The notes beneath the pieces were generated by a model. The model was not told the DNA's origin and did no database searches. It saw only the letters and a program-made list of their open reading frames with translations. Below are positions 15,245 through 34,453 of a stretch of 64,000 nt of DNA, one piece after another. How positions within the stretch are numbered: the first letter of the stretch is position 1; every line of letters starts with the position of its first letter. Position numbers and translations under genes: made by a program. Origin of the DNA: Alphaproteobacteria bacterium (GTDB taxonomy: Bacteria; Pseudomonadota; Alphaproteobacteria; SP197); assembly GCA_964291265.2 (NCBI GenBank), contig OZ219747.1, positions 3,392,001 to 3,456,000 on the forward strand. Direction: 5' to 3'.

Positions 15245-15847
15245 ATGTCAGAGGCCATCGGGTTCGATACACACCGCTTCGTCAAGCACCTGACCGACTG
15301 CGGCTTCACCGAGCAGCAGGCCGAGGCGCTTGTCGACGAGCAGGTCGCCCTGCTCGACGCCAAGCTGGCGACGAAGACCGACATCGCGGAGATCAACGCC
15401 AACCTGGCGACGAAGACCGACATCGCGGAGATCAAGACCGACATCGCGGAGATCAAGACCGATGTCGCGGAGATCAAGACCGATGTCGCGGAGATCAAGA
15501 CCGACATCGCGAGGCTCGAGGCCGACATGGCGACGAAGACCGATGTCGCGGAGATCAAGACCGACATCGCGAGACTCGAGGCCGACATGGCGACGAAGAC
15601 CGATGTCGCGGAGATCAAGACCGACATCGCGAGGCTCGAGGCCGACATGGACGCGCTGCGCCAGGAGACCAAGGCAGGCATCGACGCGGTGCGCCAGGAA
15701 AACGCAACCGCCATGGCGGAAAACGCAACCGCGATGGCGAGGCTCGAGACGCGCATGGAGTCGATCAAGTCCGATCTGTTGAAATGGATGATCGGCCTGA
15801 TGATCGGTCTGGGAGGGTTGATGGTCGCCTTCGTCAGATTTCTGTAG
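15245..15847 (+). CDS. DUF1640/CCDC90-like coiled-coil membrane-anchored protein (200 aa)
   Basis: FDTHRFVKHL...GFTEQQAE head, ATKTD motifs, heptad repeats KTD(I/V)AEI, C-terminal TM LLKWMIGLMIGLGGLMVAFV. Confidence 0.85.
   Translation: MSEAIGFDTHRFVKHLTDCGFTEQQAEALVDEQVALLDAKLATKTDIAEINANLATKTDIAEIKTDIAEIKTDVAEIKTDVAEIKTDIARLEADMATKTDVAEIKTDIARLEADMATKTDVAEIKTDIARLEADMDALRQETKAGIDAVRQENATAMAENATAMARLETRMESIKSDLLKWMIGLMIGLGGLMVAFVRFL
15367..15740 (+). repeat. Intragenic in-frame tandem repeats (21-bp, 33-bp and 60-bp units)
   Basis: aagaccga(c/t)(a/g)tcgcggagatc repeated; KTDVAEIKTDIARLEADM x3; ENATAMA x2. Confidence 0.9.
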
Positions 15848-16917: not shown

Positions 16918-17322
16918 ATGTCAGAGGGCATCGCGTTCGATACACACCGCTTCGTCAAGCGCCTGACCGACTGCGGCTTCACCGAGCAGCAGGCCGAGGT
17001 GCTTGTTGACGAGCAGGTCGCCCTGCTCAACGGCAACCTGGCGACGAAGACCGACATCGCGGAGATCAAGGCCGACATCGACGCGGTGCGCCAGGAGACC
17101 AAGGCGGGCATCGACGCGGTGCGCCAGGAGACCAAGGCGGGCATCGACGCGGTGCGCCAGGAAAACGCAACCGCCATGGCGGAAAACGCAACCGCCATGG
17201 CGAGGCTCGAGACGCGCATGGAGTCGATCAAGTCCGATCTGTTGAAATGGATGATCGGTCTGATGACTGGCCTGCTGATCGGTCTGGGAGGGTTGATGGT
17301 CGCCTTCGTCAGATTTCTGTAG
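16918..17322 (+). CDS. DUF1640/CCDC90-like coiled-coil membrane-anchored protein (134 aa), paralog of 15245-15847
   Basis: Near-identical head and TM; stalk has DAVRQETKAGI x2 instead of the KTDIAEI array. Confidence 0.85.
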   Translation: MSEGIAFDTHRFVKRLTDCGFTEQQAEVLVDEQVALLNGNLATKTDIAEIKADIDAVRQETKAGIDAVRQETKAGIDAVRQENATAMAENATAMARLETRMESIKSDLLKWMIGLMTGLLIGLGGLMVAFVRFL

Positions 17323-29413: not shown

Positions 29414-31057
29414 TCAGATCCTCAAGATGGTGACCCGTGTCAGCGGACGGCGCACCCGGGTCCCGGCGAACCAGCGGCGGGAAACACGCCGCAGGGCCCG
29501 CGTGACGTCCTCATCCTTCATCCTGGCGCACGGACGAAGGCCCTCGAAGGCATCGGCCGCATCATCGGACATCGACAGGACGGCATCGGACTCCTCGGCC
29601 AGGCCGATGAGCGCCACGTGCGGGTCGGCGGCGAGGCATGCCTCCTCGTCATCGACGACCAACGTGATGATCACCACGCCGCATGCCATGGCGTCACGCC
29701 GTTCGCGGATCAGCGGATCATGGATCGGAACAGCACGCCGTCCGGTCCATGCGACGCGGCCGTGGGTCACCGTTCGAACGACCTCGGGGGCGCCGGGCGC
29801 CAGGCGCACCAGGGAGCCGTTCGCCACGCCCCTCACCGGTTCGACGCCAAGGGACTCCGCCAGGGCGGCATGCTCCCTGAGATGGCGGATCTCGCCATGA
29901 ACCGGAATGGCGTAGCGCGGCCGCACGAGGGCGTACATGCGCGCCAGTTCATCCCTGTTGGGATGGCCGGAGACATGGACAAACCGTTCACCCTCCGTGA
30001 CGGTCTCGATTCCGAGACCTGTCAGGCGGTTGATGAGATCGAAGATCGCCCTTTCGTTCCCCGGGATGATCTTCGAGGAAAAGATGACGTGATCGCCGGC
30101 CTCCAGGGTCACCGTCTGATGCTGGCCATCGGCGATCCGCGACAAGGCGGCATTCGGCTCTCCCTGACTGCCGGTCAGCATGTAGAGCACCCTGTCCGGA
30201 GCCAGGTGGCGCGCGTCCCTGTCGGACATGAAGTGCGTCTCGGACGGCAGGTATCCCGTTTGCCGGGCACACTTGATGATTCGCCACATGGACCGTCCCA
30301 GGGCGACGCACCGGCGCCCGTTGGCCTCGGCCGCCCGGTGGATGGAAAGCAGGCGGGCGAGATTGCTGGCGAAGGTGGTGACAGCGACACGGCCGTGCCG
30401 GCCGGCGACCTCGTCGATGAGACTGCGCCTCACATCGGCTTCCGACCCCGAGGTGCCGGAGCGAAACACGTTGGTGGAATCGCACACCATCGCCAGGATG
30501 CCGGCATCGCCGCTCTTCCTGATGGCCGCCTCGTCCACCGGATCCGAGATCAGCGGCTGCGGATCGAGTTTCCAGTCGCCGGTGTGCATGACACGGCCGG
30601 CCGGCGTGTCGATGACGAGGGCGCTGGGCTCGGGAATCGAGTGCGTGAGGCCATGCAGGGCGATGGAAAAGGGCCCCAGATCCAGCGTGCTTCCCGGATC
30701 GATGATGCGGATCTTCATGTCGTGGATGCCGTCCGCGCCTTCATGGAGCTTCTCGGCGAGCAGGGCAGCGGTAAAGGGCGTGGCGTAGACCGGACATTGA
30801 AGAAGGGGCCACAGATAGGGCACCGCCCCCATGTGATCCTCGTGGGCATGGGTGAGGACGAGACCGAGGAGACGCCGGCGGCGCTCGGCAATGTAGGAGA
30901 TGTCGGGCATCACGAGATCGATGCCGGGAAGCTCCTCACCGGCGAAGGTCACACCGAGATCGCACATCAACCACGAGCCGCCATACTCGTAGAGATTGAG
31001 ATTCATGCCGATTTCGCCGGAACCGCCCAGGGGCAGGAAATGCAGGGAATGGGTCAT
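29414..31057 (-). CDS. rnj: Ribonuclease J
   Basis: LGGSGEIGMN, THAHEDHMG, HVSGH, PVHGE. Confidence 0.96.
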   Translation of the reverse strand: MTHSLHFLPLGGSGEIGMNLNLYEYGGSWLMCDLGVTFAGEELPGIDLVMPDISYIAERRRRLLGLVLTHAHEDHMGAVPYLWPLLQCPVYATPFTAALLAEKLHEGADGIHDMKIRIIDPGSTLDLGPFSIALHGLTHSIPEPSALVIDTPAGRVMHTGDWKLDPQPLISDPVDEAAIRKSGDAGILAMVCDSTNVFRSGTSGSEADVRRSLIDEVAGRHGRVAVTTFASNLARLLSIHRAAEANGRRCVALGRSMWRIIKCARQTGYLPSETHFMSDRDARHLAPDRVLYMLTGSQGEPNAALSRIADGQHQTVTLEAGDHVIFSSKIIPGNERAIFDLINRLTGLGIETVTEGERFVHVSGHPNRDELARMYALVRPRYAIPVHGEIRHLREHAALAESLGVEPVRGVANGSLVRLAPGAPEVVRTVTHGRVAWTGRRAVPIHDPLIRERRDAMACGVVIITLVVDDEEACLAADPHVALIGLAEESDAVLSMSDDAADAFEGLRPCARMKDEDVTRALRRVSRRWFAGTRVRRPLTRVTILRI

Positions 31058-31836
31058 GGGGCGCCTCGCGTACGCCGCCAGACTTCCAGCAGGCCGTGGA
31101 CGGTGATGTCGGGATCAAACCTGTCGATACTGTCGGTCGCCGCATCGAACAGGGGCGCCAGACCGCCGGTCGCCACCACCTTCATCGGTTTGCCGTATTC
31201 GGCGCGGATTCGGCCGACGACGCCTTCGATGAGGCTGACGTAGCCCCAGTAGGCGCCCGATTGCATGCAACTGACGGTGTTCGTGCCGATGACCCGCTGC
31301 GGCCGGTCAATGCCAATTCTCGGCAGGCGGGCAGAAATCCGGTGCATGGCGTCAAGAGCAAGGTTGACCCCGGGAGCGAAGACGCCTCCGGCGAATCCGC
31401 CATCCTCATCGACGACGTCAAACGTGGTCGCGGTGCCGAAGTCGATGACGATCAGAGGCCCGCCCTGACGCGTCCAGGCGCCGACCGCGTTCGCCAGACG
31501 GTCCGCCCCCACCTCGTCCGGCATGTCGATCCTGAGCGGGATGCCGAGGCGCGCCGATTCTCCCACCACAACCGGTTCGCAGTGGTGATGACGGCGACAC
31601 AGGAGCTTGAGTTCATGAAGGCCATGAGGGACGACGCTTGCGATCACCGCGTCACCGATGGCGCCGGCATCGAGGCCTTTCAGGCTCAGCAGGTGATGCA
31701 GCCACACGGCGTGTTCATCGGCAGTACGGCCGGTGTCGGCGCTGACCCGCCACTGTCCCACGAGATCATCTCCCCGGAAAACGGCAAACACCGTGTTCGT
31801 GTTGCCTGCATCGATGGCGAGAAGCAGGTCCTTCAA
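31054..31836 (-). CDS. coaX: Type III pantothenate kinase
   Basis: AIDAGNTN, VGADR, IDFGTATTFD; TTG start. Confidence 0.95.
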   Translation of the reverse strand: MKDLLLAIDAGNTNTVFAVFRGDDLVGQWRVSADTGRTADEHAVWLHHLLSLKGLDAGAIGDAVIASVVPHGLHELKLLCRRHHHCEPVVVGESARLGIPLRIDMPDEVGADRLANAVGAWTRQGGPLIVIDFGTATTFDVVDEDGGFAGGVFAPGVNLALDAMHRISARLPRIGIDRPQRVIGTNTVSCMQSGAYWGYVSLIEGVVGRIRAEYGKPMKVVATGGLAPLFDAATDSIDRFDPDITVHGLLEVWRRTRGAP

Positions 31837-31866
31837 GGCCGTGTCTCCGGCGCCGCTCGATCCGCA

Positions 31867-32362
31867 CCCTTCCCCGACCGCCGGTGCATGGCTGGCGCCA
31901 TGCGCAGGGTCCCGGACACCACCCGCATGTGACGGCCGCCCGACTCCATGATCAACGCCCCGTCATGAGCGAGTCCCACAACGCGGCCCTCCCTTCTCCG
32001 ACCGCCGGTGCATGGCTGGCGCCATGCGCAGGGTCCCGGACACCACCCGCATGTGACGGCCGCCCGACTCCATGATCAACGCCCCGTCATGAGCGAGTCC
32101 CACAACCCGGCCCTCCCTTCTCCGACCGCCGGTGCATGGCTGGCGCCATGCGCAGGGTCCCGGACACCACCCGTATGTGACGACCGCCCGACTCCATGAT
32201 CAACGCCCCGTCATGAGCGAGTCCCACAACCCGGCCCTCCCTTCTCCGACCGCCGGTGCATGGCTGGCGCCATGCGCAGGGTTCCGGACACCACCCGCAT
32301 GTGACGGCCGCCCGACTCCATGATCAACGCTCCGTCATGGGCGAGTCCGACAACCCGGCCCT
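31867..32362. repeat. 4 x 124-bp tandem repeat of the birA 3' end
   Basis: Units start at 31867, 31991, 32115, 32239; 8 variable sites in total. Confidence 0.97.
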
Positions 32363-32990
32363 GCGTGTCGATGTCTCCGCTGACAAGGGCATGGGCGCCG
32401 ATGCCGGCAGCACGGTCGAGCCAGGCGCGGCGATGGGAATAGAAACCGGAACTCTCCCAGTCCGTCACCCGGTCCTTCAGACGACGGCAGAGCGCGGCAA
32501 GAAGGAGATCGCGGTCCACTCCTCGAGCTCCCTCGCTTGCCAGATCCGTGGTGACGACATCCCTGATGGCGGGGTGGCTGACCAGATTGACGCCGATTCC
32601 GGCAATCACTGCGCTGCCAGCCGTCTCCACCAGGATCCCGGCCACCTTGGCGTCGTTCAGCAGGATGTCATTGGGCCACTTGCAGCGTGCCGGAGCAAGG
32701 TCCGGCGCCGCCGCCTCGATGGACTCGGCGACAGCCACGCCGGTGATGAGGGAGACTTGCGGGAGATCGCGGGGCGCAACGCGGGGCCTGAGAACGAAGG
32801 AGGTGTAGGAGTTGCCCGGAGGCGACACGAATTCCCGTCCCCTGCGGCCGCGTCCACTCGTCTGGACGCGCGCCCGAACCACGGTCCAGGCCGCGGCTCC
32901 GGACTCTGCCAGGGCGATGGCGACGTCATTGGTGCTCGTCACCTCGTCGCGTTCGACCAGGTGGAAGGGCGGGGGCAGCCTGGTGTTCAT
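32211..32990 (-). CDS. birA: Biotin--[acetyl-CoA-carboxylase] ligase
   Basis: STND, QTSGRGRRGR, KWPNDI, KVAGIL; C-terminus altered by the repeat. Confidence 0.94.
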   Translation of the reverse strand: MNTRLPPPFHLVERDEVTSTNDVAIALAESGAAAWTVVRARVQTSGRGRRGREFVSPPGNSYTSFVLRPRVAPRDLPQVSLITGVAVAESIEAAAPDLAPARCKWPNDILLNDAKVAGILVETAGSAVIAGIGVNLVSHPAIRDVVTTDLASEGARGVDRDLLLAALCRRLKDRVTDWESSGFYSHRRAWLDRAAGIGAHALVSGDIDTQGRVVGLAHDGALIMESGGRHMRVVSGTLRMAPAMHRRSEKGGPGCGTRS

Positions 32991-34453
32991 GGACCCGGCA
33001 GGCTCACGCCGGCGACCAGGGTGGCGGCGGCATTCCGGGCACTGTCGAGAAGGGGATCGGAAAACAGGAAGAAACCGACCGTGAGGACCGCCGTCACGGC
33101 AATCACGGGCACCAGGTCGCGACCCACCGGACGGTCGAAGACATCCGCCGGTTCATCGAAATACATGATCTTGACGATCCTGATGTAGTAGAAGGCGCCC
33201 ACCACGCTCATCAGGACTCCGATCACGACCAGCGTGTAGAGGCCGGCGTCAACGGCCGCCAGGAAGACATGGAACTTGCCGAAGAAACCGGCGAGTGGCG
33301 GGATGCCGGCCATGGAAAACATGAAGACGGCCAGGGCCAGAGCCAGGGCCGGTTGGCTGCGCGACAGCCCGGCGAGATCACCGATTCCCTCCACCATGGC
33401 CCCATCACGGCGCATGGCAAGGATACAGCCCCAGGTGCCCAGGCTCATGACCAGATAGATGGCGAGATAGACGGCGACGCCGTGAACCCCGGCTTCGTTC
33501 CCTGCCGCAAGGCCGATCAGGGCGAAACCGGCATGGCCGATGGAACTGTAGGCCATCAGCCGCTTGATGTTGCGCTGGCCGATGGCGCCCAGCGCGCCAA
33601 GCGCCATGGACCCCACCGAAAGAAGGAAGACGATCTGCTGCCAGTGATCGACGAGGGCGGCGAAGGGATCGATGAGCACCCGGACCAGAAGCGCCATGGC
33701 CGCCACCTTCGGCGCCGCCGAGAAAAAGGCGGCAACCGGTGTGGGCGCCCCCTCGTAGACATCGGGAGTCCACATGTGGAAGGGCACGGCGGATATCTTG
33801 AAGGCGAGGCCGGCGGCCATGAAGACGGCGCCGACAAGAATGCCGGTGGCCTCGCGGCCATCCGCGAGAGACACGACAATTCCCTGGAAGGATGTCGTGC
33901 CCGAGAATCCGTAGACCAGGGAACAGCCATAGAGCAGCATGCCGGAGGCGACGGCGCCCAGCACGAAGTACTTGAGGCCGGCCTCGGTGGAGCGCAGCTT
34001 GTCCTGCTGGAATGCCGCGCACACATAGAGCGCCAGGCTCTGCATTTCAAGACCGACATAGAGTGTCATGAGGTCGCTGGCCTGGACCATCAGGTACATG
34101 CCGAGCGTGGCCAGGACCACGAGGACCGGCAGCTCGAAACGTTCCATGGACTCCCGGCGCATGAATCCCCGGGCCATGATCAGGGCCAGCACGGCGCCCG
34201 TCAGCACCAGGACGGTCATGAACCGCCCGAAGGCATCGATGACGAGAAGACCGCCGAAGGGCCGCTCGCCGACGGGCGACATGACGGCCAGGATTGCCGC
34301 TGTCACAAGGGAGGTCACGGCTCCCCAGAAGACAATGTGGGATGCGTTCCTGGAGACGAAGACGCCGACCATGAGAAACGCCATGCCGGCGACGGCAAGC
34401 ACGAGCGCCGGCAGGACGGCCAGCAGGTCCTGCGTGAGGAAGGGAGTCATCAT
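32987..34453 (-). CDS. nuoN: NADH-quinone oxidoreductase subunit N
   Basis: EAGLKYF, FKISAVPFHMWTPDVYEG. Confidence 0.96.
   Translation of the reverse strand: MMTPFLTQDLLAVLPALVLAVAGMAFLMVGVFVSRNASHIVFWGAVTSLVTAAILAVMSPVGERPFGGLLVIDAFGRFMTVLVLTGAVLALIMARGFMRRESMERFELPVLVVLATLGMYLMVQASDLMTLYVGLEMQSLALYVCAAFQQDKLRSTEAGLKYFVLGAVASGMLLYGCSLVYGFSGTTSFQGIVVSLADGREATGILVGAVFMAAGLAFKISAVPFHMWTPDVYEGAPTPVAAFFSAAPKVAAMALLVRVLIDPFAALVDHWQQIVFLLSVGSMALGALGAIGQRNIKRLMAYSSIGHAGFALIGLAAGNEAGVHGVAVYLAIYLVMSLGTWGCILAMRRDGAMVEGIGDLAGLSRSQPALALALAVFMFSMAGIPPLAGFFGKFHVFLAAVDAGLYTLVVIGVLMSVVGAFYYIRIVKIMYFDEPADVFDRPVGRDLVPVIAVTAVLTVGFFLFSDPLLDSARNAAATLVAGVSLPGP

Follow-up and report, generated by a model that had tools for sequence, protein, structure and literature searches.

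Why does the end of a housekeeping gene stand four times in a row, with the extra copies out of frame, and why do these copies differ mostly at silent sites of the frame that they have lost? The question is raised by a locus in a 64,000-nt stretch of contig OZ219747.1 (referred to here as the window), in which positions 31867-32362 form a tandem array with a period of 124, 4.0 copies, 97% matches and 0 indels (TRF). In a repeat search, the spacing between repeat starts was 124, equal to the unit length, and the copies abut with 0 bases between them. The gene run around the array, which is on the minus strand, consists of a nuoN-like gene, birA, coaX and RNase J, and the units are numbered here along that strand from the birA side (U1 first, U4 last). 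The birA gene (32211..32990, minus strand) encodes a biotin protein ligase of 259 aa, whose product matched Pfam PF03099 (E=1.6e-18) and 29 PDB sequences (best E=3.3e-23), and it is the sole strong PF03099 match in the genome. Its reading frame covers U1 and ends 28 nt inside U2, the protein tail being GGPGCGTRS.

The coding 124-bp unit, U1 (32239..32362, read from 32362 to 32239 on the minus strand), carries C14, C23, A32, A80 and A118; it is the sole unit in the birA frame in the window strain, and it contains the last of the residues that align with solved biotin ligases (to residue 236-240). The other three, on the same strand, are spare copies. The U2 (32115..32238) has G14, T23, G32 and G80 together with the private letters T56 and A65, and contains the present birA stop codon. 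The U3 (31991..32114) also has G14, T23, G32 and G80. The last spare copy, U4 (31867..31990), has the private C8 and the ancestral G118 and runs on into the ancestral birA tail (31833..31866, minus strand), whose TGA (31835-31833) forms a TTGA overlap with the coaX start. This ancestral stop codon lies outside the 124-bp unit, about 30 nt beyond U4, and the birA of the window strain stops before reaching the tail. Positions 8-32 of U2-U4 are outside the birA frame in this strain, where that frame runs into TGA stops in both U2 and U3. Elsewhere in the window, tandem arrays at 15352-15739 and 17061-17202 have periods of 21, 33, 39, 60 and 81 (all multiples of 3) and a common 21-bp unit at 15697 and 17160.

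Downstream of the array, coaX (31054..31836, minus strand) encodes a type III pantothenate kinase (Pfam PF03309 match) with a TTG start and GGAG upstream; at the place of this start codon (31836-31834), the nine closest genus loci (L002-L010) have ATG in eight cases and GTG in one. A chain of predicted short ORFs of 4, 36, 4, 36, 4 and 38 aa (31833..32214, minus strand) connects the end of birA with the start of coaX: an ATGA combines the birA stop with an ATG, after which ORFs of 4 aa and 36-38 aa, with gaps of at most 2 nt, reach the TTGA overlap with coaX. According to a review, NTGA is the commonest stop-start overlap, and coupling is most efficient at spacings of -4 to +3 nt (PMC12548453). 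The chain is made of codons already present in birA, so that no selection is needed to explain it, and it can put no constraint on unit positions 8-32. RNA structure prediction gave unit z-scores of -1.02 to 0.84 and thus no support for a structured element, Rfam had no match in 30000-34000, and no promoter- or terminator-like sites were found.

The original prediction described four exact-length 124-bp units with 8 variable sites, 7 of them third-position and 6 synonymous in the birA frame, and this description was confirmed exactly. The variable unit positions are 8 (CGG/CGC), 14 (GTC/GTG), 23 (GCC/GCT), 32 (GGA/GGG), 56 (GGC/GGT), 65 (ATG/ATA), 80 (GGA/GGG) and 118 (GAG/GGG). The probability of at least 7 third-position sites in 8 is 0.0026 when all rates are equal and ranges over 0.0026-0.0060 with six mutation weightings, including GC-to-AT and transition weighting, and that of at least 6 synonymous sites in 8 is 0.006-0.020, all these being post hoc values for a single array chosen from a large scan. 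Mutation bias was rejected as the cause of the third-position excess, since the expectation climbs to just 0.38. Sites 14, 23, 32 and 80 set U1 apart from U2-U4, so the 8 sites are non-independent; all four of these sites, which separate U1 from every spare copy, are synonymous. Among the other four, 56 and 65 are private to U2, 8 is private to U4, and 118 separates U4 from U1-U3, giving P=0.11 for at least three third-position sites in four. The joint P under a two-lineage null is about 0.001-0.002. It had also been argued that neutral decay ignores codon position, which is too strong a premise because one of the copies compared is coding. The bias nevertheless goes beyond expectation with the coding copy allowed for, both in this joint P and in simulation (0/46 simulated snapshots, described below).

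The next question is whether the array exists as assembled. The region is present in three runs of one study (X1, X2 and X3), and no record spans the array because all three are assembled contigs. The flanks in X1 show 0 differences from the window, and X1 is probably the source sample, judging from this identity. A contig of X1 bridges the tail-to-head junction with 37 and 62 letters on either side and matches U3 with 0 differences. The depth of the X1 junction contig is 2.26x that of the flanks (2.45 predicted from the assembly) and that of the shared core contig is 2.72x (2.84 predicted); the corresponding observed/expected values for the 4-unit assembly are 0.92 and 0.96. The X2 flanks differ from the window in 11/900 and 6/927 letters (~1%), and a contig of this run bridges the junction with 59 and 62 letters. 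The X3 flanks differ in 12/778 letters (~1%); in this run, three contigs extend across a junction by just 7-21 letters or so, which falls short of the bridging rule, and X3 is therefore supportive only. It also appears to be a mixture of two strains. No indel interrupts the 124-bp out-of-frame junction in the contigs of X1, X2 and X3 that cross it. The junction contigs in X1 and X2, together with a depth of 3-4 copies, establish that the 124-bp array is real and common to other strains, and they dispose of the proposal that it came from mixed strains or from mis-assembly of a single copy.

A partial artefact is a separate matter. Under this alternative the repeat exists with fewer units than assembled, and C8, T56 and A65 came from co-assembled strains or consensus error. 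These three letters are seen in no run, because the run contigs collapse variants, and with no record across the array, a 3-unit array without the private sites fits the X1 depth about as well as four units do (observed/expected 1.12 and 1.13). One unit would predict no junction contig, two units are off from the X1 depth about twofold, sites 14, 23, 32 and 118 are read directly in X1 contigs and A80 in an X3 contig, and the genome is in 2 contigs with no N, 100% completeness and 2.62% contamination. We therefore regard it as highly unlikely.

Comparison of the copies across strains separates the two halves of the unit. In X1-X3, the first copies have C14, C23 and A32, and the spare copies have G14, T23 and G32, so that the 5' alleles of U1 recur in the first-copy contigs of all three runs. 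In contrast to this constancy of the 5' haplotypes, which stay separate (first versus spare), the 3' halves are exchanged between copies across strains, as read from the contig sequences: position 98 is A in all X1 units and G in both X2 paths, the X2 first copy carries G80, and all four gametes occur at 7 site pairs (14, 23 and 32 with 98 and 118; 80 with 118). The haplotypes for this test were put together by hand from contig tables, and recurrent mutation could also account for the pattern. Copy number also seems to vary, contig depth giving about 2 units in X2 and 3-4 in X1; the X2 depths solve to 1.08 junctions per genome, and X2 therefore likely has two units. Its junction contig has a 1-nt deletion at unit position 95, which is derived because relatives have no gap there, and the frame that results continues open into the following unit. 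Given this 1-bp deletion, the X2 birA would be predicted to continue across the second copy as far as the ancestral stop; with the deletion in the first of two units, BirA would gain 41 residues over its ancestral form.

The units vary in the way that alleles do. The X3 first-copy allele in record 12 has 5 other letters in 103, and the distance between first-copy alleles of different strains reaches that between U1 and the spare copies, which places the difference between the first-copy and spare types within the allele range. The third-position share is 12/15 substitution sites in the units (three runs) and 17/30 in the flanking coding sequence, a difference with Fisher p=0.19, and on this measure the units again vary like alleles. 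When the 30 flank sites were polarised with four relatives, 3, 3 and 2 shared derived sites fell to the three strain groupings, 13 were private and 9 unpolarised, which points to flanks that are mosaics from between-strain recombination, with the caveat that X3 is seemingly mixed. Within window positions 31210-33085, between-strain differences also stand in close pairs or triplets (31210/13, 31279/82, 31326/27, 31685/86, 32268/71/74 and 32363/65), and this clustering suggests short imported tracts or multi-base mutations.

Relatives give the ancestral state. The birA protein was matched in 18/18 genus genomes, once in 17 and with a weak second match elsewhere in one, and the DNA was matched in 11/22 genomes with one strong match each. 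No long tandem repeat was found by TRF in 19 relative loci or 30 metagenome loci; birA is single-copy in the searched genus relatives, none of which has the array, and a genus-wide feature is ruled out accordingly. In the nearest relatives, the birA stop overlaps the coaX start, as in the sequence 3' of U4. The A32 and A80 of U1 are the states of all four nearest relatives, and the changes at 32 and 80 are therefore derived in the spare copies. The exact array pattern had 0 occurrences in the metagenome contigs and genome contigs searched, near-identical records possibly lying outside this set.

Within the genome itself, self-BLAST yielded 507 same-strand repeat pairs lying near each other, of which 18 are single-locus at an identity of at least 88%. 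None resembles the birA array, which rules out a genome-wide habit of forming such arrays. Two other two-copy tandems at gene ends are the ends of multi-copy elements, and in one multi-copy-element tandem the 15 differences are spread as 6, 3 and 6 over codon positions 1, 2 and 3, a rough in-genome contrast to the birA units. At C2:3309029-3309312 (L068), a 142-bp two-copy out-of-frame tandem ends a 420-codon frame, with the stop 22 nt into the second copy; the layout is as in birA, the two copies have 1 difference, and the unit is found at 4 further places. A single-locus 112-bp repeat pair (L069; C2:2294421-2294532 and 2294936-2295047) has its copies 515 bp apart, one of them in an ORF, and 13 differences that fall in two of three phases (7, 6, 0). 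At C2:2535085, 2593065 and 3295357, two-copy tandems of 90-129 bp contain the palindrome GGTAACGTTACC, which has 23 occurrences in the genome.

The explanation that we favour, at a probability of about 0.55, is that a young array arose from two working birA alleles and was then shuffled and changed in number, the spare copies being tolerated passengers. The silent-site bias would then need no selection on the spare copies, which are likely the remains of working alleles exchanged between strains. Of the three options in the original prediction, capture of alleles from different strains is thus the best supported, by the haplotypes, the simulations and the mosaic flanks; it is the donor that is missing, as no coding or single-copy allele of the spare type was seen in any strain (three samples, one study). 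In simulations, which are small-population toy models, a young array from two coding alleles had all differences at third positions in 47/87, 23/98 and 3/115 snapshots with rising age, and steady overwriting by coding alleles gave a third-position share of 0.49-0.68 and 0/15 all-third snapshots. With selection on U1 only, plus conversion between copies or random-copy exchange between strains, the share was 0.39-0.47, with 0/46 all-third snapshots, and the positive control, in which all copies were selected, gave 0.97 and 16/21. These outcomes mean that the allele origin works only if the array is young and moved between strain backgrounds. As the array is found in strains about 1% apart yet must be young, it must have spread laterally. 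Against the allele origin, C8 at least could hardly have been imported and would have to be put down to chance. No route of DNA uptake was found in the genome by queries for competence genes, one GTA marker and the VirB4 domain: comEC, dprA and the other two queries had no hit, ComEC (PF03772) and DprA (PF02481) being without a match in this 100%-complete genome and the controls being positive in 10 and 11 of 14 genomes.

The proposed course of events would begin with a duplication that joined an allele a (C14, C23, A32, A80) to an allele b (G14, T23, G32, G80). The X2 sequence just 5' of U1 is as in the relatives, which leaves a microhomology of 2 nt, GG, across which the two alleles may have been joined; alternatively, the first copy may have been replaced by another allele soon after the duplication. 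Slippage would then alter the number of b copies, leading to the roughly two units of X2 and the three or four of X1, and the first and last units might still be patched by allelic tracts anchored in the flanks. Lovett and Feschenko reportedly found in 1996 that diverged tandem repeats are stabilised by mismatch repair. Both mutS and mutL are present in the genome, and mismatch repair could slow the collapse of the diverged a-b pair. The array would be tolerated in that U1 completes the ligase domain and coaX retains a ribosome-binding motif and the chain of stop-start overlaps.

An ordinary slippage duplication within one genome would need no second allele: the coding copy fixed silent changes, the spare copies decayed and exchanged sequence with it, and the third-position excess that is left is post hoc chance. 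It accounts well for the fact that four of the 8 sites set only U1 apart and the other four are unremarkable (P=0.11), for differences at the outer edges (5' of U1 and 3' of U4), as unequal crossing-over predicts, and for position 98, which is uniform inside X1 and inside X2 and differs between them; the array is moreover the sole single-locus one of its kind found in the genome. What this account does not predict is that the changes at 32 and 80 lie in the spare copies and not in U1, and it must also meet the joint P under the two-lineage null and the U1-only-selection simulations, with the reservation that the latter are toy models. We consider it unlikely. The reverse assumption, that the spare copies are under purifying selection in the birA frame, is distinctly unlikely in our view. 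They would be translated via a 123-bp first unit, via +1 frameshifting, which would occur at the GAAGGGAGGG junction, or via re-initiation, and the product would be a BirA with a repeated C-terminal strand block, ending at the ancestral stop coupled to coaX. Derived sites of the spare copies only (8, 32, 56, 62 and 65) are third-position in 5/5 cases, P being about 0.006 if all arose in place, and those of the first copy only (n=3) include one second-position change, with the qualification that three of the five spare-only sites (C8, T56, A65) are known from the assembly alone. The sites newly added by X2 and X3 are third-position in 5/7 cases (p=0.045), the simulation with all copies selected reproduces the bias, and X2, with its 1-nt deletion and 1.08 junctions per genome, has an open shifted frame.

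Against such selection, the indel-free 124-bp junction occurs in all three runs and the X2 deletion is derived, while in the window strain the TGA stops shut the frame in U2 and U3. Re-initiation at the in-frame ATG (unit position 42) would leave positions 8-32 unconstrained, the part that can be aligned with solved ligases is already complete with U1, and the repeat is in none of the searched genus relatives. The suggestion that the copies are translated and selected therefore fits the window strain poorly, where positions 8-32 of U2-U4 are off the birA frame, though the 1-bp deletion of X2 would bring the second copy of that strain into frame. A further, very improbable version of selection is that the array is a maintained, switchable BirA C-terminal module, in which the copy number and a 124- versus 123-bp frame would toggle the end of birA. 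In one state, birA would stop early and coaX would be reached only via the relay of short re-initiated ORFs. In the other, birA would run on across a second copy and end at the ancestral stop, which is coupled to coaX; the spare copies would be selected in the birA frame.

Among known systems, the array belongs best with the long-unit tandem repeats from partial gene duplication, its copies being allele-like. The DNA contains a gene segment repeated head to tail, and exchange between copies was found (four gametes, 7 pairs). Like long-unit VNTRs, the array has head-to-tail units of exact length, edge-biased divergence and mutS and mutL in the same genome, and contig depth suggests that its copy number may differ between strains. 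Unlike them, its unit is out of frame and ends a single-copy housekeeping gene, and its differences resemble those of coding alleles and not free decay. In silent-cassette gene conversion (Neisseria pilS/pilE, Borrelia vls), partial unexpressed copies exchange sequence with one expressed copy, and the birA copies are alike in this respect. They are unlike these cassettes in that BirA is an enzyme of the cytoplasm and hardly any of the differences alters the protein, and therefore no protein diversity is produced; silent cassettes of antigenic variation were rejected on these grounds (6/8 sites synonymous, a biotin ligase as target). A diversity-generating retroelement was also rejected, as there is no reverse transcriptase in the window and C/G, C/T and G/C pairs at third positions follow no adenine rule. 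The genome has 18 RVT_1 matches, none in the window and the nearest about 130-140 kb from the array; all 18 are on C2, 14 with identical score, and presumably they belong to one expanded group II intron-like element.

In Escherichia coli K-12, a duplicate 3' gene fragment of icd, icdC, lies at the e14 prophage site, and the source describes icdC as a downstream, non-expressed C-terminal copy with largely synonymous differences that can recombine into icd (PMC13626634). Going by that account, birA is similar in being a housekeeping gene with a mostly synonymous spare 3' copy downstream, and it differs in that the icd copies flank a 15-kb prophage, whereas the birA copies abut, there are three spares, and the unit is without a stop codon. 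An integration-site (prophage-site) duplicate is ruled out at birA, with no mobile element between the copies and a unit that ends about 30 nt before the ancestral stop. In the Staphylococcus aureus lpl cluster, recombination in tandem paralogues shuffles 5' and 3' parts, and a unit of one 3' part and the next 5' part stays together (PMC2568036). The shuffling of 5' and 3' parts by recombination inside tandem copies is shared with birA, and the difference is that lpl consists of whole expressed paralogues, whereas the birA copies are 124-bp fragments. For homology-facilitated illegitimate recombination in natural transformation, the competence genes ComEC and DprA were not found in the 100%-complete genome. 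A literature search that left out most subscription papers found no published description of such a birA array.

On the reading that two working alleles gave rise to a young array, the locus would offer a clear natural example in which gene-end copies that do not code bear a coding signature from their origin, which is a warning against reading function into a low dN/dS of duplicated fragments. The same reading would mark allele exchange in a lineage in which no competence, GTA or VirB4 genes were found with the queries used. On this reading the array would be of moderate interest for molecular evolution and not a new functional system. If the spare copies were selected or switchable, they would form an unusual control point between two cofactor genes, and a switch, if true, would link biotin ligation and CoA synthesis by a structural change in a housekeeping operon.
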